Assembly (NCBI RefSeq): GCF_003704095.1 | Contig: NW_020844153.1 | Location: 1-64,000 of the forward strand | Origin: Pocillopora damicornis | Taxonomy: Eukaryota | DNA length: 64,000 nt | Direction: 5' to 3' | Shown here: one piece after another, positions 3,265 through 34,056 of the stretch | How the letters are laid out: each line of letters opens with the position of its first letter | Position numbering within the stretch: the first letter of the stretch is position 1 | The notes under the pieces: generated by a model | What the model saw: only the letters and a program-made list of their open reading frames with translations | What the model was told of the DNA's origin: nothing | The model's database searches: none | Program-made: the position numbers and the translations under genes

Positions 3265-3317
<53 letters not shown>
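3265..3317 (+). repeat. (GATA)n microsatellite, probably the 3' tail of the adjacent LINE fragment
   Basis: About 13 perfect GATA units directly abutting the LINE 3' end. Confidence 0.95.
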
Positions 3318-5639: not shown

Positions 5640-5975
5640 CAAAATAACAACCATATTCTCCCGGACGCTAACAAGAACGACTAAAAACAACTCAAGCAGG
5701 TAATACGAAACATTCAGGCCATATGAAGCGAGCAAAGCCAACCATTCCAAGAATCTGTGGGCGATACTGTTCAATGCCTCAAATAGTTTTGGGATGAACA
5801 TGCGGAGATTGTCCAAAATAACAATCATACTTTTCCAGACACTAAAAAGAACGACTGAGAACAATTCAAGCAGGTAACATAAAACAGTCAGGCCGTATGA
5901 AGCGAGCAAAGCCATCCATTCTAAGAAACTGTGGACGATACTGTTCAATGCCTCGAAGACCTTCGAGATAAACCA
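5640..5975 (-). repeat. Two in-frame 174-bp (58-aa) hydrophobic repeats
   Basis: caagcagg at 5693 and 5867; the unit FEALNSI.H.FLEW.ALLASYGL.V..YLLELF.VVL.SV is repeated. Confidence 0.85.
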
Positions 5976-8235: not shown

Positions 8236-11200
8236 ATGGCGGATGATGTTTTGGTTGAGAAAGTTTTCAATTTTATTTGCGGTAGTGGCGGATTTGTGGA
8301 GTTACCTCTACTTTTGAAGGATTCATCGCCTTTGAAAAACATAAAATCTAACTTGGAAGCGAAGAACTGGCTGACAAATCATGGCCGTGGCCGCTTTGTT
8401 GAGGTGAAAGATATAAATGATGAAGTCATAGGTGTTCGCGTTGAGCTGAAAAAGAAAATTTGTCAACAATATCTTGCACGGGGTTCATGCAGGAGAGCGA
8501 AGGGTTCGTGTAAATTCTGGCACATTTGTAAAAGCTTTATCGAGGGAAAGTGCGAAGGAGACTGCCGTCGTTCGCACGATTTTCTCGACAACGACAACGA
8601 AGCGAAGACCAAAGACCTAAATATCGAGAAGCACCCGAATGGCACACAACGGAACATCATTGCCTGGAGTCTACCACAGGTTTGTCAGTTGTATTTGAGA
8701 GATGAATGTAAATCGGAAAAATGTCCATATCTTCATATTTGCCCGAATGTAGTGCGACAATTGCCATGCAGTTGTAGTTTATCGCATAATTTGACTGAAC
8801 TTAACAACAAGAAAATACTGAAGCAGTATGACCTTGTGCCACATCAGTCGATGAAAACTGCTTTTGTTTGTAGCAGTATTTTAATCATGAACGAGCAGAG
8901 GTATTTTGGCAAAGGTAAATTCACAAGTGATGATACAACCGTTAAAAAGGCCTCACTTAAAAATAACGCAAACGAAAACAGCTCACAGCTTGGGGCAAGC
9001 CAAGAGCCGAACTCGAGTGGAACAAAAGGTTTTCATGTGAGCTCAAAATGCAAAGAGTTTCTTAATGATGATATGGAGGCGAGTTCGAAGAAGAATGAAC
9101 CGAAACCCGGTCACTCGAAGGCAAAGAAAGAGCAAAAACAGAAGCGTATACCGAAATACGTCAACAATTTGGCGAGTTGTGCAGATGCTTCAGCAAGATC
9201 TCAGAAAAATCCCGGGTTTCTAAATATACACGAAGAGGAAGAAGAAGGCCACTCGAACTCATCTTCAGAAGACAACAAACCCTATTCTAAAAGTTTCCTC
9301 TCTGCTAATCAAGGTGAATCGATTCATCAGATTCCAGAGTCGAAAATAAGTCACGAAAAGACTGGTAACGAAGTCAAATTTCGTCATCCTAAACTCGTGT
9401 CAAATAAGAAACCTGAAGCGGATCCGTGTACCTCAAATGGCGCAGCCAAAGGTGGTGTTGTTGATGATGACCCGCCTGTTTTGCCCGTTGATGATATCGG
9501 AAACGATTTTGTGAAGAATTGGGTCCTGGGTGTTGATGATTTTTCCTCTGAGTCCAGTCAAAGCCTTGGAAACTCTCAAATTGAAGAAAAACCAGCGGAA
9601 CGCAAGCGAAAGTCATCCATATCAAGTTCATGCAGCTCTGTTCCGAATCCACAAAAGAATACACCCTCTAAGAAGGCTGTCTTTGACTGCATTCTGAAAG
9701 AATACAATGGTACTGTCTCCTTTCTTGATATCTCGAAAAGAAAAGACTTGTTTCCTGAAGGATGTGGAGATATTGCAGCGTGGTTTATAGCAAGGAAAGA
9801 AAGCTTTCTGCTTAGGGAAAGTAAAGACGGAACACTGAAAGTGGACGTTCTTTGTAAACGAGCAAAATTATGTTTTAACCAGGATCATTGCTCCAAAGTG
9901 GGTTGCCCTTATCTACACGTGTGCCGAGATTACATCGCTGGTTTTTGTAGATTTGGCGGTAGATGCCAAAGAAACCATAGTTTTGAATACGATGAAAGCA
10001 GAATGCACATTTCTAAACTTAAATTATCTGGGTTTAGCGAAGAACAGCTGCGTAAACTCGTTCAGCTGTCAATACCCCAAGTATGTCTGGACTATAATGA
10101 AGGACACTGTGTACTCGGAGAGAGTTGTTGGCAAATGCATATTTGCAAGGATATGATAAAGAAGAAGTGTTCAGATGGAGTCATTTGCAGTCTCAAGCAT
10201 GAAGAAGCATTGTTGACGGCTCAAGCAAACACTGTGCTAAGTAGATATGGCCTGAAAGTCTGGGATGACAACGTTCAACCGATTTTGCGAACCCTTCTCA
10301 TCTGCGAGAGGAAATCTTCAGTTGACTCTACACCCCTTTTAAAAGACACTGTTTTAACAGCAGCTAGTCTGACATCGTCGAGCAGTGCAGTGGGCAGCCG
10401 AAAAGAGAAAAACCCGAGTGGTGCCATTCCTTATTCACTTGCATCCGTTTCTGTAGCCAGAACACCCAGCACTGTTTCAACGCCAAGTGGTTCGAGGACG
10501 TCAGAGGGAGCAGCTGGCGGCACAAAAGTGAGCGATCAGAATAGTAGTCCAATTCCTTTTACAGGTGCCGTTGTGAACAACAGTGAAGCATCCGAACGAA
10601 AAGTCTTTGAGTGCTTGTGCAAAGAATACAACTGCTCAGTTTCGTTTTCAGTGATTTCTAAACGCACTGATTTGTTCACTACCGGATTCAAAGACGTGGA
10701 GTCTTGGTTTCGAAGAAGAAATGGGAGCTTTTTGATCTTAGAAAACCCGGATGGGGCAATTACAGAAGTAAGTGCCTTTTCCGCAAAGGTTCGACTCTGC
10801 TTCAGTTACAACGCCCCCTATGGAACTTGTACAAAAGACAACTGCTCATTCCTGCACGTCTGCAGAGATTATATCACTGACTCCTGCGCCAACGGAGCAA
10901 CATGCCCACGGAACCATCAATTCCGCAACGAGAAGGATAAGGCTTTGCTGTCTAAGATCAACCTCGACAAGTTCACAGACGAGCAACTTCGCCGGCTTGT
11001 GCTGTTTTCGTCACCACTGATTTGCGTAGAGTACAACGATGGTATTTGTGATCGTGGCGATGCTTGTCCTAGAATTCACATGTGTGGCAACCACTTGAAA
11101 AAGTGCTCCCGAGAAAGACATGGTTGTATCTTAGAGCATGAATCCGCCATGACCACTGACCACACCAAAGCAGTTCTCGAGCGTTATCGTATGGACTACT

Positions 11201-14200
11201 TAAAACCAGGCGCAGCAAAGAAGGCTATTTTGCTTTTTGACGACTTGGCACAAAGTAGAGAAGCAGGTATGTTTCACTAAGAAAGCATACTGGTTTCAGA
11301 TTGTGCTCATGTATCCAGCAATATTTGTGATAAAGTATAGGTACAAAATTAAAATTGCTTTGATTTTATTCGGGAAGCTTTTTTTTTAATTTTATTTTTA
11401 TTTTATTTTATAAACTAGGGTTTTAAAACTAATGTCTTTGGTCATAATTGGACAATACAAAGGTGTTTTGTTAGGATTAATCGATGATTCTGTGGCACTA
11501 TCAGTCCCTAAATATGCTCAATTTCGTTTGCTCTCCCTATAGAGGTAAATGAAAAGTGATCCTTTTTTTTCCAAGGATAACGAAAAACGTGTCTTTCTCC
11601 CTCAGTCACACTGCTGTTTTTATCGTCGTCAGGTCATGTTCACACTGATCAACCAGATGCATATATCTGTTCAGATTTCCTTCTGGGAAAGTGTAAAAAG
11701 GGCATCAAGTGTTCTGAGCACCACTGCTCGTTGCCTTACCACTGGCAATACAGAGTCGAGAATAAAGGAGTCTGGAAGAGTTTTAGTGAGACTGACAATG
11801 AGAAGGTGGAGAAACTTTACTGTGACGCAATGATGAATGATTGCTCAGCCAATGGCTTCAAGCTGTCTTTCAAAAGGTAAGCCAAGGAGAGTCGTGTTTG
11901 AATACAGAGTATTTTGCAGAGGCAAACATAAATTGTTTATACAAGCTCAAGTCTAAAATTATGGGTTTACAAGCTCACTTCTTTGTAACCTCGATATTCC
12001 CTTATTCGTTGCTATCTGTTCTGGTAAATTGTGTTGTAATAATTTCTCATGATTAATTTATATGTATGGTTCTTTTTGAACCTCATTTATTCACAAGACC
12101 TTTGTAGACAAGCCCCTCAAGTTTAGATTACGATTGATGATCTGGTTTAGATCATCTTTCAGAAAGTGTTCTATTCTTGATGCAAATTCCTTATTAAAAG
12201 AAGCCCGCAATGAGGAATTTAACTTGATAAATAATGTACCCAAAATTTCATGATACTGAATTGGCACACAGATCGTAGTTAACTTAAAAATCGATTTTTT
12301 TAAGTCATGGATTCCCTCTCTTGGATGAAGAGTATACCGTGCAGTTCCTGTTTGAAAATGAGCTGATGCTTGTGCAGACAGATTTTGAAGTCGTCGCAGA
12401 CATTAGGCGGCTGTCCACAGAACCCTTCATCAATAATCCCGTTAATCCTTTGGCTGCTGTGTGGACTTGGTACTGGAAGGACGAAAATGGCATGTGGCTC
12501 GCGTATGGCTCAGACTACCTGGTAAGATTTTATGTGAGGTGCCATTTCTGGGTAATTGTTACAAACATGTTTTAAAGAAGAAATAACAAGTAAAGGTAGT
12601 AATTAGCCATGCTTTTTAAGCCTCATGTTATGTTAGGAAACTGTTAAGTCATGGACGTGTTAATAAGCAAACGTTATTTTGTTCAAGTCATTTGAAAAAA
12701 AAAATGAAAACAGTTAAACAAGCAGTAAACACAATCAGAAATCAGTAGATTAATTCATTGGAAATTTTTGTATATTTTCAGGGGAATGATCTTCAGCGAC
12801 CCATAGAAGAGGCATTCTTATCCACCCCATACTGCTATAAGTTTAAAATTGCCGAGCAAGACTATGTACTGCATTTCCTTAAAATGGAACAAGAAAACTT
12901 GAGGTATGGCACTAAACGACAAGTAAGGAGAAGACCTGGAGAATTTAGATCAGGCGCAGACATCCTGGAGATTCGAAGGTAATTTCAAGTGACAGTCAAA
13001 ACTTTCCGCAACGGCCACTTCTGAGGCAAAGAAATTTAGAAAGGGTGCAACACAGCACATTTTTTGTAAGAAGGGTCGAACTACATTTCTGAAGTTGTTA
13101 ACATGTTTATTTCAGCATATTAATACGTAACACACTCAAAGTAATGTACTGAAAAGAAAGGAAACATTAAACACCAAAGGATTGAAGCACACTGTTTTAT
13201 CATATTTTAAATACTTACTGCATGAAGAGAGCGATATGACCTTTCGGGGAGTAAGCCATGTTGCCCTGGTCAGGTGAGGGGTCAAACCTAGAGCTATCAA
13301 TCTGGAGAATGTGGCAAAGCCAGGAACGCCAGGATATTGGAATATCTCGGAGCACTAGACTGTATCGAAACAGTCGCAGCTTGACTTAACAAAATGCTCT
13401 TTCTGGCAAAACGGAGTGCAAAATGGTGCGATAGTAGTGGTGGAACTCCCCAAAAAACTAGGGAAGTTTGGGTCAGGTTACAGATAACTTTAAAATTTTG
13501 GTGGGTACATTAATTGCGCTTGAGTGTTTTTTTTTTTTTATGTCTGTCTTGCTTAAGTATAAGTATTTTCAATTTTTTTCGCCCAAGGTCATCCAGGAAG
13601 GGAAAACCGATTACAAATGTATCAAATACTGAAAGGCCTAGCAACTGGGCTTCTATGCCATCTACTAAGCAGTACACACGTGTCACGTTAAGCACTGTAT
13701 CATCTGAGTACAAAGAAGTGGAGAGGTTATTTAAAAGTTCAATCAAAAAAAGGGTCGTTATCCGTAGAATCCAGCGTGTGCAAAACTCTTTCATGTGGGG
13801 AAAGTATCAAAGGTATTATTTATTTATTTATATATATGTAGGAAATCTTTGTTTCGATTTTTCCGTCTTACAGTGCTCGATACATAAAAATAGAGCGTGA
13901 TATGTACTGTGTTAGGGGGAAAAAACAAGGAGACTACGCTTTCATCCCGAAAAGCCTGTTTAGTTATTAAAATCTCTCTTCAGGGGATTTTAAAATCCCC
14001 TGAAAAGTGATTTGAGTCAAAATCAACTTTTTGTGCTATATTATTTCAACGTTTTCGTAAATAATAGAAAAACTATTCACCTCAGTGTTGGTGGATTGTT
14101 TGAAACATTCTTATGTTGAAACATACTCTATTCTTCCGTGGAAATGGTCGTAATTGGGTATACGTAAAACGCTCTTTACCTGAAGCCTTGTTTTTGTTTG

Positions 14201-15018
14201 TTTTTGAAAGGAAAAAGGAATATTTGTTGACGATCAAGACAGGCGGTCACAAGTTTTCCCCCTTGAACGAAAAGAGGTTGTTCCACGGAACCAGCCCCGA
14301 TGCTGTAGAGGCCATTTGTAAACAAAACTTTGACTGGCGCTTAAACGGAAAGAACGCCACTGTTTATGGTGAAGGAAGTTATTTCGCTGTAAATGCCTCT
14401 TACAGCGATGCTTATGCAAAGAAAGACGCAAATTCGTCTCAATTCATATTCTTAGTCAAAGTCCTTGTTGGAACTTACACCAAAGGCGACTCCAGCTATC
14501 GAAGACCGCCTCCAAAACAACCATCCAATCCTTCGAGTGACCTGTACGACTCTTGTGTGGACGACGAGTACAATCCAACCATATTTGTGGTGTTTGACAC
14601 CGATCAGTTCTATCCAGAGTACATCATTGAGTATTCTGATGAAAGTAGAAGGTATTCCGGAGCTCACGGAGCTGGCCCTCAGACAGGAGCGTATGCAGTA
14701 CCTTCTTATAGCCGAGCTGCCCCATCTACCAGCTCCTTTAATCCCACAAGTGGTTATTACTCATCTAGTAGTGTGGCATCGAGTAGTTATGGCTCAGCCT
14801 CTAACAGCTCGTCTAGTACACCGTACCGCAGCACAGGTACAAGCTACTATTCAGGTACGGCGAGCTCTCATAATACAACATATTCATCGCACATCTCAAG
14901 CACAGGAACATCAAGAAATTATTCTTCATCAACGAATACTTCTAATGTGTCACACCACAGTTCAACTCCTAGCAGCTCCTCGAAATCTTCCAAAGACAAC
15001 AAGTGCTTGGTAATGTGA
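8236..15018 (+). CDS. PARP12: PARP12/ZAP(ZC3HAV1)-like protein A, ~1573 aa: 3x(HTH+4 CCCH) - CCCH - WWE-WWE - mono-ART (H-Y-I) - Ser-rich tail - CaaX
   Basis: Exons 8236-11266, 11633-11876, 12305-12521, 12782-12978, 13588-13812, 14211-15018; all introns GT-AG, phases 1,2,0,2,2, total 4722 nt in frame. Motifs: CCCH fingers, LPYHWQY, WTWYWKDENGMW, LFHGT, NFDWR, YGEGSYFA, YDSCVD, TIFVVF, QFYPEY; ends KCLVM*. Confidence 0.9.
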
Positions 15019-16194
15019 CTTCAAAGAAGGAGAGAGTGTGTCTGTGTTTCGTACTAATGATGGATAATGCTATATTTGTTGAAGTAGGTTTTTGTAAAGG
15101 AGTTTCTGAATCTAGGAGCACTAACTGCAGACGTAAATTTCTTCGAAAAGTTCACCGCAGTTTTGAAGCATACACGTAATTGATTTTAGGACTGTTATGT
15201 GGAAGTTACTTATGCTTTTCGGTGTCTGTCTTTATGACGTATGATTCAAATAGTTTCACATGTGGTGATGTAACTTCCTTTCCTACTAAGCTTTTGAACA
15301 ATTCTCTAAGTATGTAAACGGTTCAGTCGTATGATATGTGGATTTGTTTCTAGGTGCCGTTTTAAAAATTCTTTATCGTTCACCAATGCCACTAGTGAAC
15401 GTGGATCGAAAATTTGATGTGCAGATAGTGTCTTTGTAAAATGCAGCGGAGACAGCAACCTCCTGCACTATGGATATTTGATCGCCCGATAGAAAAAAGT
15501 CCTGTTCGAAAACACGAAAAAAACAAGACAAAATTCAAACACACACTGAAGTGCAAAAAAAAAAAAATAAATAAATAAATAGAAACAAAGGCAAACGAGA
15601 AAAAACTCTGAAAACGAGAACAAACTCAAGTTTAGAAGCAAAACAAAAAGTTAACAAACGAGACAAAACAAAAGAAGAGAACCGCAGAAAGCTAGGAGTT
15701 AAACTCTTTAGAAGAGATAGGTGGGTTTGGGCTATTAGTTTAATCTCATTATATTCTTTATTTTTTTTTTCTTAGAAATTACGTAAAAATGCTTTACAGT
15801 TAAATGAATAGACGGGGTCGGGCACCTGTCTTTATCCCTGTTATCGTCAATTTAAATCATGTAATGATTCATGCGAGGGGGCAAGAAATAAGCAATATCT
15901 CACAAGTAGCAGAGTGTAGGGAACATGAGCAAACAATACTTCTACGTCAGTGAATCATCGCATGATCTAAACTAGATGGTAGCAAGGATCTAAACACGTT
16001 ACCCAAGTACATATATCATTATTCACTGAGAGACCTCCCTGAATCGAAAAAGCTCTCTAGTCATATAGACTTATCGCTTAACTTGTGATGGTTTAAGCGG
16101 TTAGAAATACGGTTGTTAATGATCGTTTCGTGAGTGACAAGCTAAGACCAGCGTTAAGCTCAGGTACTTTATTCTTCAGAAAATGGAAACATGA

Positions 16195-16530
16195 ATGAGA
16201 ACAAGAACAATGATGATGATAACGATAACGATGATGAGAATTACAGTGGTAGATGATTGTAATGATGATAAAAAAAATCAAATCAAAAAAATTCTTGATC
16301 AAAAAAGGAACAATAAGAGCAAAAATAATAATGATGATGATGATGATGATGACGACGATGACGGTGACGGTGACGATGACCTCGAAGACTATGATAACGA
16401 TGATGATAATGATGAGGTCGATGAGGATAACGTTGAGGATAACGAGGACGCTGACGATATCGATGACGATGACGATAAAAATGATGACGATGACAATAAC
16501 GTTGGTAATGAAAGATGTTAACGTTAATAA
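16195..16530 (+). repeat. Degenerate (GAT/GAC/AAT)n low-complexity trinucleotide tract
   Basis: gatgatgat/gacgat/gataac runs, which produce poly-D, poly-I and poly-H ORFs in several frames. Confidence 0.85.
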
Positions 16531-18352
16531 TGTCTGTCGAAACAAACAAAAAATAATAACATCAACTCAGAGAATGGTTTGGTAACCTCTATGAAAAAAC
16601 TAAAGCGTTACTTTTCTCTGTTAAGGAAACCACACAACGTATTAACGCGGTTCTTAGCCCCACGATATTTTCAAAACAACCTACATACGTCGTCGTGGTC
16701 AGATAGAATTGTATTTGATATACGATTCAAATTACCTTCGCCTTGCCGAAATAGAAAAGTCGTATCTGCTTGAGTGTTTCCTTCTATAGTGCAAACGGGT
16801 GTAAGAAAACACATCCAGTGTTAAGCTAGTCCGTTTAACACAATTACTCTGATTTTTTAAATACTGTTCGAAGAGTATTCAACCCAAAAGTTGTGAAGTG
16901 TAATGCCGAATTCAATGTTTTTCAGAATTATGTTAAATTTGTTTGCCATGAGCGGGCAGTTTACTGAGATGTATTATGAAATACCTTTGATTCGTTATGT
17001 GCACAGTTAAAAGGCTTAAAAATGGGAGTTAAATTAAGTTATTCTTGCAATTGAAATAAGTGTGGACTGATGTAAAATTATTGAGCTCAAATAAATAATT
17101 CAAGGATTACACAATGCTTCTTCTTTTATTCATTCTTTCATCGATCTTTGAAATTATTACGCATCTTAAACTGCTTAGCTACCTGGTTGAGTTTGGAGTT
17201 GCCCTATAGGGAAGATATTCAAACTTCTGAAAACACTGAAAACGTAATATTCCGTCCAGACTTAACATATTACCCTATTTATTTGCTCATTTTGCGGCGA
17301 CATAAGTGCGCAATTTAGACCTCATTCATAAATGGCGGCCAACTTTAATTTATGTAAATCTACGTTTCTGGTCTTGACAGCAAGTTTGAAAACAAAATAA
17401 TTTCCACGTTAAAGCTAGGCTAGGGAGTTAATTTACATGTATGTACAAAAGAGAGAGGGCTATTTTCACACGCACACGCACGCATACAAAAAGGTTTGTT
17501 ATCAATTATATCTGAGAGGATTGCATGACACTTTCATTGTACAGTTAAGTCCAATGTGTTCAAAAGGGGCACTTGGGATTCTTTGATTTTCCGCCGGTTT
17601 GCATTCATTTGAATAATTTTCGATGTCTCGGTCCTTGATTCATTGAGATTCTCGAACTTTCCGTTCTGTTTCCGTCGGTTTCTATTTTTTGCTAAGATAG
17701 TTTTCCTTTACGTTTTCATCTTCGCCTATCTTTTCCCTGGGGTCATCGATCGCCTCTCTTCAGATCTAGTCCACCCACATTCTTGGTGCGGTTTTGAGAT
17801 ATTTGTGTTCCTGTTTTCGTTTCAGAAACAATTGAAATTGCGTTCCTCAGTTGCTTCGCGTAATTGCAAAGAAAGACAGTCCTCCAAAACAGCTTCAAAA
17901 GTAGATAAAACTGGAATAGGTCAGTGAAATAAATATGTTTTCCCCTACAGTGGGTGCTTAACCTTTAAAGAAAGTAGTGAATTTACCAGACTTTCAGGTA
18001 AACGAGTTAAGTTTCCCAGTCAACAGTAACGCAACTGGTTCAGGAGTTAATTCAGAAGCGATTTTATTAGTGAGGTAATGTAAAAATGAATAAAACTAGA
18101 TTGGCCACTTCATTTCTATTCTCAAACCAAACGTGGCATGTCCTTTCTGTTTCCTGATGGAAAACCCACCTTTTCTTGCTTTTGAAAAGAAACCATTCAG
18201 GCCTGAAATTCTTGTATACTAAATGAAATTGCAATTGGAATATTTATTTAACACTTGAGAGCACAAAATAGGAACGGTCGTGAAAATTACAATTTGAGGA
18301 ACTACTAATTGCACGATTTCTTTTGTAATTCTGGGGAACACACTTATCATAA

Positions 18353-19240
18353 ATGTCGAAAATTTCCCCTTGGCGACGAAATGGAGGAAATCACAGCTCC
18401 GAAAGCGAAGAGGAATCTTCTGAAACATTTTTAGACATCAATTTGAAATTCACTTCGAATGGCAATTCTTCGGGAAAGATCGTAGGATTCCCTCCCATCA
18501 CTGATGAATTGGATAAGAAAGGAAGCACACCTTGTATATCGTTTATGGACGAAGATTTAATGATAGATCACACAAAGAAAATGCCAGAACATATGAAACA
18601 GCGATGGAGAAGGGCTGCAATATGGGTGACGGTGTTCTGCATTGTTGTATCTTTTAGTATAACAATTGCTTCGTTTCGAGCCGCCGGGGCGTACGACAGC
18701 TCTTCTGCTCTCGCGCTCGCATTTGATTGTGCTAATGCTTTCTTATGCTCCTTCGTTGTTCTGTGGAGATTCAAGACAGCAAAGAACGGCAGTTTGGGGT
18801 ATAAAAGAGAGAGAATATCCTGTCTTGTGTTTGCGACTTCTTTTATTGTCAGCGGAACTTTGACTGCGGGATTATCAATCAAAAGAATTGTCGAGAAAGA
18901 TCATCCCACCAAAACGTTTTGCATCGTGGCTGTTCTAAGCGTTGGTTGCTTTCTGTACACTTTGCTAGCCGTGATGCAGTGTTACGTTTCTAAGAAACTT
19001 TTAAGTTCAGCGATGCTCGGGAGCTGTATAGACTCCGTGTTATCGGCTGCACTGATGTTTGGCCTTCTTATTAGTAACTGCGCCTTTTTACTTGTTCATA
19101 CAGACTTGTGGTATCTAGACCATTCCATGGCAATTTTAGTTGCACTAGTGACAATACTTTGCGGCTTGCAAATTCTGGTGGAAGTGTTGTTTTATAAGAA
19201 ACTTCCAATAGATATGATGCCTTGTAAGGAATGCTATTAG
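18353..19240 (+). CDS. TMEM163: TMEM163-like (CDF/ZnT-related cation transporter), intronless CDS, 295 aa
   Basis: Six hydrophobic segments. WRRAAIWV...SSSALALAFD....VVLWRF...RERISC...KKLLSSAM...WYLDHSMAILV parallels TMEM163 (YRKKALWVS..SASAFGFAFD..IVLWRY..REYIAC..WYLDGSIGVL) as recalled. Confidence 0.8.
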   Translation: MSKISPWRRNGGNHSSESEEESSETFLDINLKFTSNGNSSGKIVGFPPITDELDKKGSTPCISFMDEDLMIDHTKKMPEHMKQRWRRAAIWVTVFCIVVSFSITIASFRAAGAYDSSSALALAFDCANAFLCSFVVLWRFKTAKNGSLGYKRERISCLVFATSFIVSGTLTAGLSIKRIVEKDHPTKTFCIVAVLSVGCFLYTLLAVMQCYVSKKLLSSAMLGSCIDSVLSAALMFGLLISNCAFLLVHTDLWYLDHSMAILVALVTILCGLQILVEVLFYKKLPIDMMPCKECY

Positions 19241-20431: not shown

Positions 20432-23340
20432 ATGGAGTACGATAATGTGGTCCACAAAGTGTTTAACTTTGTCTACGATTCTGGCGGTTTCGCCGAATTG
20501 GATTAAATTTTTTAGAGCATCCGTCACCATTAGCATTTAAAGGGACAGAGGGAAGAGTGATAAGATGGTTGAAGAGGCAAGTGGTCTTGCAGTTGTAAAA
20601 GATCGCAATGGTGAAACTGCTGGTGCGCATACTGATCTAAGGAAGAAAATGTGCCAGGAGTATGTAATCAAAGGGTCATGTACAAGAGGGCAAGAAAGGT
20701 GTAAGTTTTGGCATCTCTGCAAAAGTTTTATTGACGGAAATTGTGACGGAGACTGTAAATGCTCATTCAATTTTTTGTACAAGGTTAGCAAGAAAAACAC
20801 AGAAAAGTTCAACCTCGAAAAGAGAACAAATGACGCGATAAAAAGCGTGGTAGCCTGGAGTCTTCCTCAGGTTTACTTGTTGTATTTAAGAACAGATTGT
20901 AAATCAAATAAGTGCCCATATCTTCACATCTGCCCCAAGGCAATTCGAGAGTCGCCTTGTAAATAAGCCACGTCACATAATGTGACCGATTTTCATAATG
21001 TACTAGTCCTCAGACAGTACGATCTGAAACCGCATAAGGGGATGAGTATCGATTTTTTCCGCTGCAGTATTTTAGTCCTAAAAGAACAAAAGCGTATCAA
21101 GGGGTGCAAATACTCAAGTGTTGCTCCCATTAAAAAGGGAAGCGGTAGTCATGCCCAAATTTCAATCGTCACGGCATCACCTCCAAGTGTAGCGGGCGCA
21201 CGTTGCTCAGGTAACGCGACTGCAAAGAGTTCGCCAAGTGACTCTTTGACTGGCGCTCAACGAAGTAACACTAAAAATGCAACAAAATGGTCGAAAAGAA
21301 AAACAAAGCAGTAAACAACCTAAAAAAGTGTCACATCACTTGGTAAAATCATCCGTTCCACTTGTTAACAACCTGGCCAAACATTCCCGTTCAATGCTGA
21401 ATAATAGGTCCCTCAATTTTCTATACATTCCATCTGAAGACAAGGTTGAATTGCCGATGGATTCGACATCAGATGAAAATGTCAATACCAGGATGTGTCC
21501 AAACCCAATCAAGTACACCGATAAACCAAACACTCCACCCAGCGATCACAATAATCTTCCAAAGTCTTCACAAAAATCCACCAACCATTCTCCAACCATT
21601 GACGCAAACTTGGAAGATAAAAACAAAGTCGAAAACATTTTTGAAGCTGGTTCCAACGCAGATGAAAAACCATCAAGTAGCAAAAGTTGCCAGGTGAGAT
21701 ACCTTGGTAGCATTTCCAGCTCACGTATTGCTGTCACCCACTTCGAACCATCAGAGTTAAAGGTTTTCGAGTGTCTGTGCAAAGAGTACCTCTAATCGGC
21801 CCCTTTTTCTATCATTTGTAAATGGACGGATCTCTACCCTCCCGAGCATTCTGATATCGAGCTGTGGTTTCGTGAGAACAAAGGAAGTTTTTCGATAAAG
21901 GAAGATGATTAGGGAATGATTTCAGAAGTTTAAGCCTTCTCTTCAAGGGCATGTATCTGTCATGGTTATACCTGCAATGTAACTTGTTCGAATGAAAGCT
22001 GCTCGTACATGCACGTTTGCAAAGATTACGTCACTGATTCGTGTTCCAATGGGGCAACTTGTCACTGGAATCACAGCTTTCACAACGGAAAAGACCGGGT
22101 ATGGCTGTCGAGAATTAAGCTAGATCAGTTTATTGAGGAAGAGCTTCGTTGGCTCGTGTTGACATCGACACCACAGATTTGCGCAGAGTACAACAATGGA
22201 ATTTGTCAGGATGGGTCCTCGTGCACCAGAATCCATACGTGCATCGCCTACTTACTGAGGCGCTGTAAAGCATCTGGCTGCGGTCTTAGCCATGAAGAGA
22301 CCATGAGGAGTGAGCACAATAGGGCAGTGCTTGACTGGTATCAGGTGACCGATTTGGATTCAGGCTATCTCGACCAGCTCATTCTGATGAATGAAGAACC
22401 GGTTAAAAAAGGCGACACAGCTAATTCAAAAGTGCGAATTTGCAATTCAGTTTTTCCTCACGACTCAAGGGATTCCCACACGGTTGCTGCAAGTCCCTAA
22501 GCCCAAAGCCAAATTATCACAAGCAGTGCTGTCCCAGTCTCAAATATTTTCAAGAGCAGCACCCTGGATGCTGAAGAAATCCAACCGCCACTGTGGTCAC
22601 GGGTCCAGGTATCCTTTGTCTCACTTTTACAGACGAGGCAAGGTTACCAGCAGCCACTTTTCCTTCAATGAAGTTCTAACCGTCAACAAATCTTCCAGAA
22701 CAAAAAGTGCAAGGGAACTCTTGGCCAGGGAAAGGTTTTTCAAGTCCCCATGTATCAGAACCGTGCACCTCTGTTAAGGGGGGAAATGATTCATAGAGAG
22801 ATGGCCAAAGACCCTGTGATACAAGTTCGGTTGTCTCATAAAAAATTATCACGGAAGGCTCCCTGTTATCAAAACTCTTTGTTTCATGGGCAGCTGTTCA
22901 AAACGAGAGAGTTACCACCAACGCTCCTTCAGGCAGATATCCCCCATATCATTGCAGCTGAGTTGCAGTCACGGAGAGACTCTGTTACTCGTGACAAGTC
23001 AGGGTGTTCAACCAAGTTTAACGGGGAAAGCGATCATTCTGATGAACTAACTACACAAGGAAGAACCTGGAGCTCATCTTGGCTGTCAATAACCCGTAAT
23101 GACGATGATGCATTCACACAGTCCAGTTATTAAGCGAGGACTATGACTGCCATAAATATACCCATTTGTGCAGATCGTGCGTTTAGCTCTTCAAGCCGTT
23201 CAACTTTCACCAACCACTTATTAGTCTTGAAGGCGCATGTTCCAAGCTGTTCCTGTCCAAGAAAATTTTCCCCGGGAAAGATGAAAATTATAACAGCCAT
23301 CATCATATCTATGATCATCTGTATGATTACAATCATTTGA
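20432..23340 (+). pseudogene. Decayed ZAP-like CCCH gene (two HTH+4xCCCH modules, no WWE/PARP exons seen), possible C-terminal TM
   Basis: Starts MEYDNVVHKVFNFVYDSGGFAELD* at 20432. Fragments KKMCQEY..GSC.RG...CKFWHLCKSFI and SELKVFECLCKEY..MHVCKDYVTDSCSNGATC align with modules 1 and 3 of gene A, with multiple stops and frameshifts. Confidence 0.85.
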
Positions 23341-24599: not shown

Positions 24600-24763
24600 A
24601 AATTATCAATACATCAACAAGAAGATAAGTGATGAGAAAAAGAAGAATATCAACAAGCACTGTCAGTTGATCTAATACCAAATTCTCCGAACTAACATCA
24701 TAGAAATTGTATGACAGACAGTAAGGAGAATTACTGATGAGATCTTGGGAGTAAAACGGTTAA
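24600..24763. repeat. Probable dispersed non-autonomous repeat (MITE-like), related to 49800-49982
   Basis: Ends in tgggagtaaaacggttaa, versus tgggaataaaatggttaa at 49964-49981; ccaaattctc here is the reverse complement of gagaatttgg at 49840. Confidence 0.4.
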
Positions 24764-26918
24764 GGACTGCGCCATATATTATTTTAAATTCAGAGAATAA
24801 AAGGCAGTTTCTTCCGAATTGGACAATCAATCGACTTGGAACTGAACTAATTCACTAAAACTAAGTTTTAGTAAAGTAAGACAACCCGAATGTTACTGTC
24901 ATCTCCAGAGTATTTCTACACAACTTCTCAGGGTCACAGTGACTGTGCTGAGCCATTTTTGGGGGAGACGGACCTATTTCTAAGCATGGTTTGCATGAGA
25001 CAACACCCAACTACACTTTATGGTCTACCGTGCATAAACATTCCGAACTAAAGCAAGCAACCAAAGACTAAACTTCCCTCGAAACTAAAGAATTGATGTA
25101 ATACATTCAGTTTTATGACACAATTTTTCGTCATTTATGGCATAAACATGAATCTAATTGTCCAGTTCTTTTCTACCTAATTCTTTTGGGAAATTTCTAT
25201 GTCACGTCATTTTTCCCCTTAAGTATGTTTACATGATTGGAATGCTTGAAAAATCTCACGCAGCATTACGGGTCAACTTGAAATAGCGCATTTAAAATGG
25301 TATTTCAAGACTACCATAAATTGCTGTTCAAAATGTAGCAGAGTTAGCTGATTTAACCAGGGAGATCAAATCACCTTATCATGAACACTAACGTTATTCA
25401 AAAAAATTGTTGACAGGCGCAAGATTTATTTTGGGTGAACCATGAGATCGTGGGCTACAATTTTACGGAGTTTCATGGGTAAACTTCCACTTGGTCACAA
25501 AAAACGGAAGAAAACGTTTTGCCCTCTTCACAAGTAAGCCGTGCATGGCTTTAAGATGACTTACTATTGTGAAATAAGCCTTTTATAGACCAGCTTATAA
25601 GAGTTAAAAACCCTTTGGAGCAAAACAAAAGTGCTCAAGTCCGAAACTTGCATTGGTACCTGAAGTACCTTCGTAACAAGAGACAATAACTATCAAAACA
25701 CATCTCAGTACTTTGTGACAGTTGCACGTTACAGTAGGCCACATAATTTCAGGTAGGCCACATAATTTCAGAGCCTTCGTGAGTCGTAATAGCAAGGGGT
25801 ATGCAGTTTCCGTTGTGAAGTCGGGAAGTACGTGAGTACTCGCAAATCGCAAACTCGCAAAAAGTGGCTCAGTCGACCGACCAACGTACACGTGAAATAA
25901 ACTGCAGCATAAAATTATCGCGTTTCTTGTGTTGGAACCAGCGATATTTTTAACAAAACCGTTTATTCTTTTTTTTTTTTTTTTTTCTTTCTTTTTTCTT
26001 TCTTTTTTTTTTCTGAGACCTGCTTCTATGACGAAAAGCGATTAAATTGTCAGTCGAAGATGATCCTGATAGTTGAGTTTAACGTCAGAATGACGTCAGT
26101 ATCTGCTATACGCACATACGGAGGACGTTTTATGGTGAATAGTTTCATCGACCGAAGAGATATATTAACTTATCAGTGGCCTCAGACCACATAATACCTC
26201 TCTTAGTTACATTTTATATTACTACCACACAAGAAAAAATGCAATGGGACCTTCATTCAACAGACACTGAAATATCCCATAAACATAGTTGTCCCTTTTG
26301 TGGTGTTAACTAGGGATGCGGTTTGACATCCCATAAGGAACACGTCCCAAAGGAAATATTACCGTTCATTTTACTGCTACAGGAAATTAAAAGCTAATTT
26401 ATGCCACATGAGTATGAGACTGGTTATTCAGGAGGATAGAATTTCAGGGGGAAAAGATTCCTGTGCATCTCTTGTAGCAATAATGAGTCTTCAATGAAAA
26501 GAGAATTCTGCAAGGGCTTAAGAACTGTATTTCAGATAACAAACCCTTTCAGATCACCTCATACTCTTGTCATAAAACCCAAAGAGCGCTGCTTTCAATG
26601 GTCATGACATAAAATGAAATATCGAACCAATTTCAAGTCAGTTTAATACCACCTTGGCTTCTTTCTTCCTTATTTCGAATGTTTCTGTATGTAGATTGAT
26701 TATTTTCAATCGAAAAATCATATTCGCTGCTTTCGAGCTCACCGAAACGGGAAAGGAAGATACATGTATACGTTTTTTTACTTTCATTTTAAACGCTGAC
26801 CAAAGAAATGCGCTCACTTCGTTTAAGCATTCAAAGCTTCTCAAGCCTTAGAATGAAAATTTATAATCTAAGCGTGAGTATGTTATGAGGTCTGTAAACA
26901 GTATATGTACCTCAATGA

Positions 26919-29900
26919 TCAACAGACCACCTTAGATTTGGTCTTGAACTTTATCAAGAAAGTCGGGTAATACTGATCCGAGGCAAACAGCACAAAAATG
27001 GTGGGCTTGGTGACGTTATCCACACAAGAGTCATAACGCTGTTTCTTGGCTTCGGAGTCACTCCTTAACGGTGGTCGTGGTAAGGTTGGCTCACCTTTGG
27101 CATATGACCCCACAAGAACCTCGCACAAAAACATGTACCGGAAGGACTCGGAGTCTTGCCTGCAGTAGAGATTACTCAAGGCCGCCTCCTCTGTGAAGTA
27201 GGCTCCTTTACCGAACTGGGCAGCTCGGTCCTCTTCTAGAGCACGACAGTCGATGTTCTCCTCACATATCGTGTCTACAACTTGGGGATCAACTCCGTGG
27301 AAGAGAAGTTTTTCATTCATAGGATTGTCTTTGACCGAGGCCTTCTTCTCCATCCATTCTTTCTTACTAAGAGGAACAGCACAAAATTTCAGCTTCATTA
27401 TTGGGAATGAAATTTCAACCTAAATTCTGTTTTGATTTGAAGTGAGTGAATTGCAAGTTTTAGCAATAATTTTTTTCTTATTGCCGTTATAATTGCGTTG
27501 TTGAAGTTTTTATTTTAACCAGAGTTCAGTTCTTGTTTCGTTTACCTTAAGGTAATTTTCTTAAACAATAAGCCAAGAGGCCAGAACTGATTAAAAGACG
27601 CAGGCAGCAGTATTCACGAGATGTATGACTTTATGCGTAAAGTAGTCAACTGCTTAACCCAATTCATCTCTGGCTGCGGGCTAGACATTTCCTACTTTCC
27701 TAGTTCACTACAAATGTATGTGTCAAATGCAACCTCAGTGACTTCAAAGTCTGTTGGGATTCATCAAGAGCAAGAGTTACACTGGTGCGTATGACTGTAA
27801 TACCTAGAAAAAACCTCGAAGAGGATTAACTACCAAAAGAAGAAATAACACGTTCAATACATACTCTGCATACTTCTTCCACAAAAACGGATTTTGAACT
27901 CGCTCAACGGAGATGATAGTTGCCTTGTTTTCGGACATGGTTTGGCGAAACAGGCTTTCGGCACATTTGAATTCATCTGAGTTGCTAGTCAGAGGAACAC
28001 GCATGAACTCTCGGTCTTCAGGAACACGTTCCCAGTGAGAAGGAGTGTGACCATGTGATGAAGCTGAGGTAGACTGCCCTGGTGTTGCGGGTTGCAATGG
28101 GATTGGTAGTTCAAGGGGACTGAAGAATATAAAAAAAAACACGAAGTTCGCTTAACCTTATAGTGCTTTTCCTCGCGAATTAAAGCTCATACTGTTCATT
28201 TGATTTTTTCAGTTCCTGGCCTTCTTTAGAAAAGTGATAATGATAATGACATAAAATAAACTCGTGTTTGTACAGAGTCTCAAAGCAGATACAACAAAAG
28301 CTAGCTTACAACATATACCCATACAATATTCGTTTGACTACGATGTATACACTCTAGATACCAGTAAACAAAAACTCAAACAGCAAAGTAAAAATCTCAC
28401 TGGAGAAACGAAAACACTAATATACATTTATACATACAAGAAAACAAAAGAAATAAACAAACAGAACACCACCCGAAGTGTTCGGCCTACCCAAGTGCGC
28501 TTACTGTGATTGGTCAAAATAACAATCACCCCACCAATTTGATGCATGCAAAAACAAAAATATATTCCTCGTCAACACGCGTTTCCCACGTGTTTCTACC
28601 TCATGACTTTCTGTATTGTAAAATAAGCCTTGCGCATAAGTTGCCTTCGTTGTTGCTACGAGCGCATTTTACGTTTTAAATGACCCCCTGAGATGGACGA
28701 TAGGGTCATCATGCCACAAAATAACCTTGTAGAAATCAAGGTGACTGGATCTAACATATCTTTAGAGGTAAGCATTCACAGTGTTAGTTTTTACCTCTGC
28801 AGCCTCTCTATTTCCGACTTAGACCTAAACAAAGGCCTTCTTCTCACTTTTGTAACTTTAATGGGTGGTTTCAAGTTCTGCTGGTACATGGATGTTTTGT
28901 GAAAAAACAACTTATGGTCCTCTCCTCCTCTTTTAAATTTATGGAATGATCTTCCTTTGGTGAACGACTCTTCTATTCGCTTCTGTTTGGAGACATCATG
29001 GCACGAAAAAAAGGAAAATAGAAAAAAATAAGCCTTCAGAAGATACCACCGCCGAAATGAGGAAGTGAACTCCCCTTTTTTCCCGAAATAACGACAAACA
29101 TAAAACTTCGGTATCTAAGAATCAATAAATTATAATAAAACCTGCCATTGCATGGAAAAGAAGGGGACATTTCCTGAATATGGAAAATGCTCGAAGCTCG
29201 TTAATAAATACAAAAACATTAAATAAACAACAATATCAAAGAAAAGTTATGCTCACAATAAATTTGTCCCTAAAATGGATGACAAAAGCAAAAAAATAAA
29301 AAAAAAATTATGCATATATATAAATATATACATATACATATAAATATACATACATATAGGCTGCGGTTACTTTAGGGCAGTTTCAGAACCAAAACTGTCT
29401 CCAGATGTGGATATTTATATCATCTTACTTGCAGAGCTTCATAAATCACTCACCAAATTCTCCAAAAATGTTTTTTTTACTTTTCAGACCTAAGATAAAA
29501 TTTGATTTGCTCATTGGCCTAAAAGAATGCAGTGAATTGTCAAGCAACTCTCAGATGAGAAGAGAGGACCCCTTTTCTGTTACCAAGCCAATGATAGTCT
29601 GTGTTCTTGATATTAATTTTTTTTTCCTCTGTTTTTACCCAAAAGAGTAGGAATGATCAGCAATTATCTTACAGACATACCATAAGCTCAGAATCATACT
29701 CAGTCCAACTGCTGTCCTGATCTGACAGGTACCAAACCCATGTAGTCAATAGAGAATGATCTGTAAGCGAGCTCACTGACTTAGTGGACAGACGTCTCAG
29801 CTCCACAGATCCAAATCCTGTCACAGCTTTCATTTCATCAAAGTTGATCTTGATGTAACCTTCTCCAGGATCAATACTGCAGCAACAAAAGGGAAAGTTA

Positions 29901-32900
29901 ACTATCACACAGAAGTGAAACCAAACATTATGATTATCAATCATATTTAGATCAGCGTTAACTTATAATATAAAGATCTTTCCAAGCTTAAAACTGGAGC
30001 TTCAGTTAGTTAATTTAACAGCCCTTCCTTCATCAAAACTCCTCACTGTCGGTTGCAGAGTGTATTCTGGGAAATCAGTCATAAGTTATGAAGAGAGGGT
30101 GGGTATACCAGGGATAAGGGCTGGCTACCCTTCTTTATTTAACAAAATAAATATATTCTTCGGGTTCACTAGACAAGAAAAGTGATTAAAGCTGTAATTT
30201 CCTATTGGTGAAACAAGTTGTACTTACAGTGCAGTTGGAGGAGGTGCAACTTGAATGTGTCCAATTTCTGTCTCTGTAACATCAACAGTGCAGAACTGTC
30301 TCTCAATGTCTTCACTATCATTTTCGGTGAATGCCTTCCATCCATCTGCTTGCTCATTGTCAAGGTATCTATACTGCCACATGTATGGCATGTTGTGATG
30401 AAAGTACTCACACAATTGAGCCTTGCCACAATGACCCAATAGGAATTCCAGGCAGATGTACTGGGGGCTATGGAAGTTTTGCACCTCTGTCTTTGGATTC
30501 ATCACTTGTTTCTTTTGAGGTTGTGCAGCTACAGAATTAACAAAGAGATTGTTCAGTAATAAATTTAGAACTGAATTTTCATTTATGTTCTTAGAGGCCT
30601 GTGTATGAACAGGGTTAATTATTAAATATATAAAATAAAATCAAGAATACCAAACATTCCCAAACCGCTGGAATCAGAGTCATTAGAATCCTGCCATGAA
30701 CAAATACATGGTAAAGGATGATTTTGGGCGTTAGATGATGAAATCTCATCAATTTCTTTGCTAAAAGTATGGTTATTTCATAAGATTTGATGTCTCTGAC
30801 ATTTGTCTAACATCATAGTACAGTATCATCTCATTTCTTTGACACAATGATTTGCATCTGTAAAATAGATACATGCAAGTGAACAAGCTCAATAAAAAAA
30901 GATCCATAAACAACCCCATGCTTACAAATTGAGTTAGAAATGACCATGGCCAGGTTCAAAACACAAATGACAAAATTTCTTGGTCAGATGTGTACAGATA
31001 ATGAGATAGTGTATGTAACCATAAAAAACTAACTTGGGTAATGGTACTTCAAGCAATTTCCAGTGCAGCCCAGTACCAAAGGTACAATACTGATTACACT
31101 TCTTACCAGCTTCTTGTTCCTCTTTGGTTTCCATGGTCAATGGTTGCCTCTGTCCACGCACCAGAATGGCTCGAAAGACAGCTTGCACTGGAACAGTGGT
31201 CAAATTGTACTTCTCTAGAACTAACCGGGTATGGGGTTCTTTGAGACTTGCCTCATGGTTAAGAGGGCAGTTGGCTCCATTTTTGCAATTGCCCATTACA
31301 TAATGCTTGCAGACATGAATTGCATAGCAACGTAGACCTCTCCTGCATCTAGAAGATTTCTTGTTGTAATCAAGACAAACTTCAGGAACAGAGGCAGAAA
31401 TCAGGACACGTAGCTGCTCATCTGAGAAACAGCCAAGCTTCCGCCTTTTAGTGATGTTTTTGTTGTGAGGGCTCTTCAGATTATGGCTATGGCTGTATCT
31501 ACATTTCTTCCCTAACGGACAGGCACCATTAGCAAGATAATGCTTGCAGACATGGTAACGGAAACACTTTGGATCCTTACAGCCATTTTTGCCCATCAAG
31601 TAGCGAAAACAGATGCGTGCTTTAGGGGTGCATGCTCTTACTGATTCAATTCCCCCTTCACTGTTCTCAATGATCATAAACCTGCTTGAGTTTTCCCTGA
31701 ACCATGCAGCAATATCAATAGCATCTAGAGGAAACAGGTTGTAGCATTGGGATATTACAGCAAAAGGCACTTCACCATTGTGTTCTTTACAAATGTATTG
31801 AAAAACAGAGTTTACAGCTTCTTTTTCCAATTGGCTTTCTGCACTGTGCTGTTCAGATGGGTCAAAAGAGGTACTGTCCTGAGACAGTGCTCCTGCAACA
31901 TTTGTTGGGGACAGGTTGAAGAGCAAATCATCCACTTGAGAAAGTGGCTCAAAAGTTGAGAAGTCATCCTGTGAACCAAATGTATCTTCAAGATCTTGAA
32001 ATCCATCTTCTAACTCATCAGAAAAATTGATCAAGTTTCCTTCAGCAACTTCACTTATGCCCATTCCAGAAACCTGGTTCTGGTAAGTCATCCCACTGTT
32101 GGATTGTGTTTGCTTCCTCAGACCTTGAACAGATGTATTCCCTGATGTGTCTACATGCTTTGTGCTTGGACTAGGCTGATTGGAAAATTTTGAAACTGAG
32201 TAAAGATCAGGTTTGTCTGGCAAATCTTCATTATCTGAGGTTGAATCTGAACCTTCCTCTTCAACATCATCTGCAAGTGATTCTTCACATGGTTCACCTG
32301 CTTGATTTGCCTTTTTCTTCTGTCTTCGTCGTTGCCTTCTCCTCTTCTTCAGCCTCTCATCTGGACACCTTTTCACTTGTGAATCCAGATTGTTATCATC
32401 TTTTAGGGCTACAGGCAAGGACATCAAAGATGCTGGCTGTGATGTTAAAGAAGAACATGCTGAGGAAAGCTTGGCTTCTGTGGGACCTTTTTGCCTCTTT
32501 GGGAACAAGATGTTGCTCTGCATTATGATTATTTTGGTTCTCTGAGGGTCTAAATCATATTGCTTTAGAATTGAGGAATTATGGTCATCATTTAAAGCGT
32601 GTGTCAAGTTACAACTGCACGAGTTTTCTCCAAAAGCAAGGGGGCATAAATGTAAATGTCGGCAGTCATTACTGTAGTTGCATCTACTATTCACATATGG
32701 GAGACAAATTCGGGGAAAACTGTGTGAAATTATGTTCTTTAAAGTTCCATTTGGGCAACGCTCAATCCCCAATCTCTGTATCTTCTTTATGTTACCCTCA
32801 TCATGGAAGTCATGTGAGAGACCACAGCCTCCCTGACAAGTATCCTCAAGGTAACCTTTGCAGATATGCCAATACTGACAAGTGTTGAGAGATTTACAAT

Positions 32901-34056
32901 AACCTTTCATATACTGCAAACATAATTTTTTCCTTGAATTTACTCGAACACCGAGAATATCACCATTTTGGTTCTCTAGCAAAATGATTTTCTGTCCCTG
33001 TTCTGGGTGAGTGTTTACTTGAAGCCAAATCTTTGCATCAACCTCAGACTTTGAAAACTTCCCTACCAATGGCGAGGGTGGTTGTAATAGGTCCCGCAAT
33101 GAAGAGTACCCTCCTTTACTACATATGAAATTAAAAACTTTCATAAACAGAGGATCAGCATCAGGAGGTGCAGTGTCATGATGCATTTCTGGTTTGGCTT
33201 GAGCAGGTGCTTTTGGTTCAGGTTTAGAGAAGTTTTGGCATAAACGCGCCAGACTAACAGCTCCAGGTTTACCCTGATGTGAGGGGTGCCTCTGTGTAAT
33301 ATTATCAGGCTTATTAACTCTTGGCGTGGGTTGCCTGCTGAAGCTTGGATCATTGATAGCCCTTCCTTCAAAAGATTTCTGCTGCTTCGGGATCAGAATG
33401 TTACAACGAACGACATCCATGTCTGACGTTCGGGGAGGCCTGAACCCATACTGTTTCAGCAAGCTTCTGTTGTGCGGACTAGTGAAATCGTGATACCGAC
33501 TACATCCACAGGCTGTTGCCCGCACCGCATTAACACAAATATGAAGATACGGACAATTTACAGAGAGGCAACCATTTTTTGAATACATAAGACAAACCTG
33601 CAGAAAGCTTCCGGCGACAATAGTTTTCAAAGGCCCAGTCGCTTTTCCTTCAAAACCCAATTCCACCGTTTTCGCTTTGTTGTCTTCATCGTGAAAATCA
33701 TGTGATCGGCCACAGTTTCCTTTACAAGTTCCCTCAAGGAACTCCCTACATAAGTGCCAGAATTTACATCTACTTCCTGATTTACAAGACTCTTCGGTGG
33801 AGTACTTTAAACACATTTGTTTGGCCAAGTCGATTCGCACGCCGACAGCTTCATCACGTTGATTTCTTACCAAAACCAATCTGTTGTTTGGGTCCAAATC
33901 TTTCTGAGTTTGAAACCATAAAATCAGCTCAGTCTCAGTAGATTTCTTTGCCAAAGGCGAGGGATTTTTAAGTAAATGCGATAGTTCTAAAACTCCGCCA
34001 CTTCCACTGATGAAATTGAATACTTTTACAACTGAGACATCGCTCGATACTGCCAT
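26919..34056 (-). CDS. PARP12: PARP12/ZAP-like protein B, ~1445 aa: 3x(HTH+4 CCCH) - CCCH - WWE-WWE - mono-ART (H-Y-I)
   Basis: Exons 34056-31107, 30528-30228, 29876-29681, 28982-28795, 28119-27865, 27366-26919; GT-AG, the same phases (1,2,0,2,2) as gene A, 4338 nt in frame. Motifs MPYMWQY, TTWVWY, LFHGV, FGKGAYF, YDSCVD, TIFVLF, QYYP. Confidence 0.9.

Follow-up and report, generated by a model that had tools for sequence, protein, structure and literature searches.

The single RNA-binding head of ZAP is a textbook example of a non-self sensor. The stretch of DNA analysed here (the window; the first 64,000 nucleotides of contig NW_020844153.1 of the Pocillopora damicornis assembly GCF_003704095.1) carries two PARP12/ZAP-like genes, A and B, in which a head of this kind, a winged helix followed by four CCCH zinc fingers, is present three times within the first exon. 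The locus raises the question of how the additional copies arose and what they recognise. The answer we favour, with a probability of about 0.55, is that A and B belong to the PARP12 family and are expressed in stony corals, that their three diverged modules come from separate duplications within a pair of modules of type I and type II, and that they encode infection-induced mono-ADP-ribosyltransferases which would hold on to long single-stranded RNA through several heads that differ in specificity and are not directed at CpG. We take the source of the window to be a stony coral, in agreement with the nearest named relatives of both genes in the homologue search, which are Stylophora pistillata proteins.

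Structure of the two genes

Exon 1 of each gene, approximately 3 kb long, is composed of three modules of about 215 residues apiece (Table 1). All eight modules, including two in a pseudogene, were found where an earlier note, made from the letters alone, had placed three modules of a helix-turn-helix (HTH) plus four CCCH fingers per giant first exon, and their positions and types bear out the arrangement given there, I-II-II in gene A, I-I-II in gene B and I-II in the pseudogene. The two types are distinguishable as described, with identities of 33-47% within type I, 34-51% within type II and 20-27% between types, and a tree split of 100/100; the short fourth finger attributed to type I is C-x8-C-x1-C-x3-H. 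Every intact module has 16 Cys/His ligand positions, which, where readable in the 321 classified modules discussed below, are 89-100% conserved within each class. All modules keep four fingers and are basic (isoelectric point, pI, 8.6-9.4).

The relationship to ZAP is evident at profile and fold level. Pfam family PF25261 identifies three stretches in each gene, and a profile of nine modules from this genome aligns with the PDB structure of the ZAP N-terminal domain along its length (E 6e-21 to 3e-20). When the entire exon 1 of gene A was compared with the PDB as a single sequence there was no match, but profile and single-module searches gave one. The AlphaFold models of modules A1 and B3 are confident (predicted local distance difference test, pLDDT, 92.5 and 91.7), and ZAP is the top-ranked fold for both, with Z 10.1 and a root-mean-square deviation (rmsd) of 3.3 Å over 127 residues for A1, and Z 9.3 and 3.9 Å over 126 residues for B3. 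For the winged helix of the two models (residues 1-66) there is further similarity to LOTUS (TDRD7, Z 7.2) and Z-alpha (Z 6.5) domains, at the generic winged-helix level.

In both genes, contigs assembled from the polyadenylated RNA of three studies connect exon 1 with five more exons at GT-AG introns, and splicing of exon 1 to the ZnF5, WWE and PARP exons was seen in three of four RNA runs for gene A and in all four for gene B. Being assembled contigs, these data are informative on splicing and not on expression level. An artefact, be it an assembly duplication or an unspliced open reading frame, is ruled out, since the modules are 20-51% identical to one another and exon 1 is joined to the PARP exons in the RNA contigs. 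Both genes have the features defining the PARP7/12/13 family (PMC11784840; papers are cited here by PMC number and for their accessible parts), namely a ZnF-WWE-WWE unit and then a PARP domain, and both carry the H-Y-I triad of PARP12-like mono-ADP-ribosyltransferases, from which activity is predicted. The Porites orthologue of gene A matches the ZAP central domain (7kzh/7sz2, E 2-4e-13), and its PARP domain has human PARP12 as best PDB match (2pqf, E 2e-50). A CaaX box is present in gene A only; gene B ends in KSKVVC. The two genes are oriented toward each other, with the pseudogene in between.

Table 1. Coordinates in the window of genes A and B, their modules and domains, and the pseudogene
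Feature	Position	Strand	Basis or remark
Gene A, PARP12/ZAP-like, 1573 aa	8236..15018	+	RNA contig joints, open spliced frame
Gene A exons	8236-11266, 11633-11876, 12305-12521, 12782-12978, 13588-13812, 14211-15018	+	RNA contig joints; transcript extends to ~16314
Module A1, type I (class Ia), winged helix + 4 CCCH fingers	8254..8889	+	
Module A2, type II (class IIa)	9670..10305	+	
Module A3, type II (class IIb)	10594..11238	+	
Gene A ZnF5 and two WWE domains, predicted poly(ADP-ribose)-binding unit	11633..12978, exons 2-4	+	tblastn of homologues
Gene A PARP catalytic domain, triad H-Y-I	13588..14650, exons 5-6	+	Pfam PF00644, E 1e-21
Gene A CaaX box CLVM, preceded by lysines, end of 126-residue low-complexity tail	15004..15015	+	sequence
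Pseudogene, exon-1-only A-type copy, ATG 20432	20432..22389	+	modules Ia (20450-21080) and IIb (21754-22389), middle module missing
Gene B, PARP12/ZAP-like, 1445 aa	26919..34056	-	RNA contig joints, open spliced frame
Gene B exons	34056-31107, 30528-30228, 29876-29681, 28982-28795, 28119-27865, 27366-26919	-	RNA contig joints
Module B1, type I (class Ib1)	34032-33388	-	
Module B2, type I (class Ib2)	33147-32500	-	
Module B3, type II (class IIc)	31815-31156	-	

Distribution and history of the module arrays

A homologue search with exon 1 of gene A retained 111 proteins out of 7831 candidates, and those with a species name are exclusively from stony corals. By tree, 321 of 322 full-length modules were sorted into seven classes (Ia, Ib1, Ib2, IIa, IIx, IIb and IIc). 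Counting these homologues together with the genes of this genome (in the window and on contig C3168), the gene A-type architecture Ia-IIa-IIb is present in 44 proteins and the gene B-type Ib1-Ib2-IIc in 28; other architectures are Ia-IIx-IIa-IIb (6), Ia-IIx-IIx-IIa-IIb (2), Ia-IIx-IIb (6) and Ia-IIb (7), and the remainder are partial. Stylophora, Oculina and Montipora carry both types, and the A type is found additionally in Porites and Acropora. With these genera assigned to the robust and complex clades as we presume them to be, both types occur in both clades and would therefore be older than the robust/complex split.

Selection was estimated by pairwise comparison of 18 loci, considering only pairs with a synonymous distance (dS) below 0.45. 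In the three deepest complete A-type pairs the ratio of non-synonymous to synonymous substitution (dN/dS) is 0.10-0.31 in the modules versus 0.52-1.16 in the linkers, and in the single B pair it is 0.15-0.43 in the modules; judged by these ratios, the modules are maintained by purifying selection. Module A1 compared with RNA contigs of other colonies or species shows 12 non-synonymous to 3 synonymous codons among 40 of 377 rows. Identity to protein P0001 is 90% for A1, 98% for A2 and 95% for A3, and gene B is 99-100% identical to P0096. The variability of A1 is possibly the signal of an arms race.

Further copies are found in the same genome. Contig C3168 (199541-232829) carries two more PARP12-like genes of the Ia-IIb architecture, one of them with a long tandem-repeat linker and the CaaX box CMIM, as well as pieces of a hydrophobic-repeat PARP gene, 69-82% identical to window positions 442-7371, at which point the contig ends; the end of this contig and the start of the window may belong to the same cluster. 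More distant, intron-split PARP12-like finger exons are present on C1986 (~682300-683700 and 696600) and C2200 (128352), probably representing an ordinary single-module gene. A Pfam-family search of this genome gave 2 matches only and missed the genes of the window themselves, which marks it as insensitive.

The trees do not group the modules by position. A single positional triplication (A1-B1, A2-B2, A3-B3), named by the earlier note as what would speak against its reading, is ruled out, A3+B3 being rejected by the approximately unbiased test (p-AU 0.01). The trees of type I and type II were built from 40 rows each, hand-picked subsets of modules with no vertebrate row, in which gene conversion is possible. 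Proteins of other animals with a I-II head branch outside the coral clades in both trees, and an ancestral I-II pair, as that note had assumed, is the likely starting point. In the type I tree the coral modules form one clade (100/99) which excludes the two type I modules of Nematostella, and B1+B2 (Ib1+Ib2) is the best grouping (78/93), recovered in 776 of 1000 bootstrap trees compared with 5 for Ia+Ib1 and 8 for Ia+Ib2. In the type II tree IIa, IIx and IIb cluster with two outside proteins (89/95), apart from B3; IIa+IIc appears in 2 and IIb+IIc in none of 1000 bootstrap trees. In the A lineage there were three type II classes, all carried by the deepest-branching record, P0039; this lineage reached four modules (I-IIx-IIa-IIb), so the three modules of gene A may be a reduction from four.

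The pseudogene, which the earlier note had taken as a sign of the I-II ancestor, is a case of loss. Its second module (P2) nests inside class IIb, the class of A3, and the linker of the pseudogene corresponds to the first one in A-type proteins, by which its I-II state is secondary; as a relic of the ancestral pair it is thereby ruled out, and offers no evidence for that ancestor. The first module (P1) has one frameshift and 2 stops and P2 has 3 stops, coverage in the RNA runs is patchy and shallow, and tblastn of homologues found no WWE/PARP exon downstream. We read the I-II genes on contig C3168 as secondary losses likewise. ZC3HAV1L, a ZAP-like protein with the N-terminal domain only, resembles the pseudogene in being an exon-1-only duplicate adjoining its parent gene; the coral copy differs in being broken by a frameshift and five stops.

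Convergent expansion, the central proposal of the earlier note, thus stands in part. Separate expansions of the I-II pair in the A and B lineages give the best trees and are favoured, though not proven, and the events are ancient rather than local. It is possible, if less probable, that corals had one ancestor with at least four modules (I-I-II-II), from which A lost one type I and B lost type II copies, or that neighbouring genes underwent conversion, with no convergence within corals. Such a history would agree with the groupings left unrejected, Ia+Ib1 (p-AU 0.42), Ia+Ib2 (0.38) and IIa+IIc (0.23), with the eight-module tree, in which B1 is closer to A1 than to B2 (87/76), with the frequent loss of modules in the A lineage seen in the Ia-IIx-IIb and Ia-IIb proteins, and with the different placement of P0127/P0138 by the type I and type II trees, a conflict suggestive of gene conversion or of poor resolution. 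It is opposed by the absence of any I-I-II-II protein from the 111 homologues, by the bootstrap counts given above, and by the position of the Nematostella type I modules outside the coral clade. Under separate expansions, a I-II head in the anthozoan ancestor would have been followed, before the robust/complex split, by doubling of type I in B and tripling of type II in the A lineage, and later by repeated module losses in A-type paralogues.

Outside corals similar arrays are found. The I-I-II head of the Nematostella protein is, on topology tests, the product of a separate duplication: a pairing of its second type I module with B2 fails the test (p-AU 0.002), and one of its first with B1 lies at the border of rejection (p-AU 0.057). 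The PARP-domain tree (39 rows, after dropping 14 partial, redundant or odd ones) leaves the deep branches unsettled and does not give the order of A, B and Nematostella. Beyond cnidarians, named proteins of Ptychodera, Branchiostoma and Pomacea have 2-3 modules, which suggests that multiplication of the head is recurrent in animals; the module pair of Ptychodera is 81% identical, which marks a recent event. An exhaustive profile search with 1754 matches at E 0.001, of which the best 150 were taken, added 134 proteins, 63 of them with at least two modules. Seven records (P0116, P0121, P0123, P0124, P0125, P0130 and P0145) have 4-7 ZAP-type modules and form their own clade with positional classes. 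No named member of this clade was found, and the Atlas match for P0129 was to generic PARP12/ZAP clusters only, under 0.9. A search with P0240 gave 17 proteins with no named vertebrate among them.

RNA recognition and proposed function

ZAP contacts CpG through K89, Y98, K107 and Y108 (PMC8102003) and further through F144 (PMC8568172). These contacts were mapped onto the coral modules via profile alignment to 6uei, with an offset of two. At least three of the first four are retained in 0 of 291 modules of classes Ia, Ib1, Ib2, IIa, IIx and IIb, versus 23 of 28 in class IIc; an aromatic residue at 108 is present in 1 of the 291. In class IIc K89 is kept in 21 of 28, Y/F98 in 15, K/R107 in 23 and Y/F108 in 21. 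In the window, A1-A3, B1 and B2 retain one or two of the first four contacts, none with an aromatic at 108, leaving the ZnF2 pocket unmatched in these five. B3 alone is ZAP-like in finger 2, with K89/R107/Y108, in a register that is ambiguous at 108 because of a second, fully conserved His two places on. F144 is absent from all six modules, the four-residue stretch holding it is missing from the coral profile and from B3, the A1 and B3 models superpose on ZAP only up to the F144 hinge, and the loop C96-C106 has 3-5 residues in coral modules versus 9 in ZAP. The duplicated classes being those without the contacts, the multiplied copies are the least like a CpG reader.

The possibility raised in the earlier note, that the modules were multiplied for multivalent recognition of CpG, is accordingly improbable. 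One protein would then read several CpG dinucleotides together, in the manner of several ZAP molecules on a viral RNA. Such a mechanism would fit with the module being a true homologue of the ZAP domain by profile and structure, with the pocket of class IIc, and with the dependence of ZAP activity on CpG number and spacing (review PMC11414379). The residue counts and the loop weigh against it, as does the dating of CpG-specific ZAP to lungfish/tetrapods (PMC8102003, PMC12204182). The ratio of observed to expected CpG is 0.99-1.21 in five neighbouring coding sequences, by which CpG would be a poor non-self mark in this genome, a small sample in which gene B itself has 0.43 and gene A 0.81. Gene B, and B only, is likely CpG-poor by gene-body methylation.

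More likely the extra copies serve to widen or reinforce the capture of RNA and do not count CpGs. Each basic module would bind RNA, and the fast-evolving, flexible linkers would let three heads act on one molecule, giving avidity and breadth for foreign single-stranded RNA. The ZnF5-WWE unit would read ADP-ribose chains and the PARP domain would write ADP-ribose on viral or host proteins; human PARP7 and PARP12 do ADP-ribosylate viral proteins (PMC11784840). The product of gene A would be farnesylated and located on endomembranes like ZAP-L, that of gene B would be soluble, and both would be infection-induced.

Several observations count against this reading, in addition to the unrejected groupings and the P0127/P0138 conflict mentioned above. 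The weightiest is that for human PARP12, which has a module like these, binding to RNA was not detectable (PMC8102003). Superposition of both zinc-free AlphaFold models on ZAP is limited to HTH-ZnF2 (~residues 1-145), and over the whole module of B3, the ZnF1-2 and ZnF3-4 lobes included, the rmsd is ~11 Å with a template modelling (TM) score of 0.41. The linkers of the B pair are conserved like modules (dN/dS 0.26 and 0.10), and some close A pairs have module dN/dS of 0.5-0.85, on small counts. Induction is known from an anemone gene with a separate duplication and an R-Y-V triad, and is moderate there (table row 650), the single gene annotated PARP12 reaching a log2 fold change (log2FC) of 5.9 (PMC8713801). 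For the coral, we infer RNA binding, avidity, enzyme activity, prenylation and an antiviral role from sequence.

Two other explanations of the repeats have to be considered. The extra modules may engage proteins, as platforms or as decoys directed at nuclease or ligase cofactors or at viral antagonists, with at most one module per protein binding RNA. The behaviour of human PARP12 just cited would be expected, the C-terminal domain of KHNYN is a further ligand of the ZAP domain (title of PDB 9bgl), the pocket is kept in class IIc only, and A1 is unusually variable among close relatives; on the other hand four fingers and a basic charge are retained in every module, and gene A is maintained across corals though it has no IIc module. 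We consider a scaffold or decoy less likely but a serious alternative, and the stronger of the two. Much less probable is a non-immune role (stress granules, membrane traffic or turnover of host mRNA) in which the repeats are kept for handling host RNA. Full transcripts of A and B do occur in RNA runs not chosen for infection, and PARP12/13 act in stress granules (PMC4245714), but the anemone homologue is cGAMP-induced (PMC8713801) and paralogues and modules undergo birth-and-death. The gene next door, which we take to be perforin-2-like, is a further point against such a role.

Known relatives, membrane anchor and neighbouring genes

That the family exists and occurs in cnidarians is already known (PMC8102003, PMC4245714, PMC11784840), and cnidarian genes have been placed outside the ZAP/PARP12 split (PMC8102003, PMC12204182). 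No paper describing tandem ZAP modules was found in the open literature, the search not extending to subscription papers or to figures and supplements of PMC8102003, PMC11784840 and PMC12204182; the three-module coral proteins are apparently an undescribed, real variant of a known family. Vertebrate PARP12 (ARTD12) shares the HTH plus four CCCH module, ZnF5-WWE-WWE and the H-Y-I PARP domain and likewise lacks the CpG contacts of ZAP, but has one module in place of three, and human PARP12 has no CaaX box (PMC8568172), unlike gene A. The long isoform of ZAP (ZC3HAV1, PARP13) has a homologous N-terminal module, a central poly(ADP-ribose)-binding unit and, like gene A, a C-terminal CaaX; it differs in its single module with the five-residue CpG pocket and in its dead Y-Y-V PARP domain, whereas the coral proteins have an intact triad and no F144 stretch in their three diverged modules. 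Bird and alligator ZAP may be active too (PMC8102003), which makes a dead PARP domain a weak criterion for ZAP.

In Nematostella vectensis LOC5516216 (XP_001636351.2 / XP_032241892.1) combines a I-I-II head with ZnF-WWE-PARP and a CaaX box (CSVM), and differs from the coral genes in its separately duplicated type I pair and in its triad, R-Y-V. The isoform XP_001636351.2 is named as cGAMP-induced in PMC11784840, whose consulted passages do not describe the repeated modules, and in polyps treated with 2'3'-cGAMP the gene has log2FC 2.54 with an adjusted P of 1.4e-39 (PMC8713801, supplement table). The loss of the catalytic His together with a CaaX in this protein (P0120) parallels the dead PARP plus CaaX of mammalian ZAP-L.

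A Cys at position -4 is found in 25 of 43 invertebrate proteins with module and PARP domain (17 near-duplicates dropped), versus 5 of 241 proteins without PARP domain; the named carriers are corals, Nematostella, Ptychodera, Branchiostoma, gastropods and bivalves. B-type proteins do not have it (0/5, gene B and four others). ZAP-L requires its CaaX (PMC8568172), and by analogy gene A would be farnesylated. The gain of the box has been placed in early tetrapods from a vertebrate-only sample (PMC12204182, 2025). Tentatively, the ancestral animal PARP12/ZAP may have been a CaaX-anchored, catalytically active, STING-inducible antiviral enzyme, of which invertebrates repeatedly multiplied and re-specified the RNA head into polyvalent arrays reading non-CpG marks of foreign RNA. 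This would have happened at least three times in hexacorals and again in hemichordates, amphioxus and snails, with up to seven modules elsewhere.

Other genes surround A and B in the window. A WWE-PARP gene without zinc fingers and with N-terminal hydrophobic repeats lies at 7169-4060 (-); its repeat part has no Pfam match, one intron is spliced in three of four RNA runs, and an N gap falls inside the PARP exon. A second such N-terminus (1530-1, -) continues past the contig start. Near genes A and B, at 41006-38664 (-), is a MACPF gene with a C-terminal membrane anchor (Pfam E 4e-24), presumably similar to perforin-2/MPEG1. Between gene A and the pseudogene is a single-exon, cation-efflux-like membrane gene (18353-19240, +) with a weak, sub-cut-off Pfam match and RNA contigs covering it, which we assume to resemble TMEM163. 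Hundreds of RNA contigs with very high summed depth match a short element at ~24690-24765, which is a dispersed repeat within the 3' region of gene B. In Nematostella, perforin-2 is induced by cGAMP too (PMC8713801).

The locus touches the question of what the ZAP fold recognised before the CpG depletion of vertebrates. Seven coral module classes with fixed and distinct finger-2 residues, long maintained, make this question testable by single-domain binding screens, and with Nematostella there is a laboratory species in which the homologue could be knocked down. A published scheme makes membrane anchoring a step taken in tetrapods, and the CaaX census is relevant to it; if the anchored ancestral enzyme proposed above were true, vertebrate PARP12 would have lost the CaaX and tetrapod ZAP would not have gained it. 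For the corals themselves, genes A and B are candidate antiviral effectors of reef-building species.

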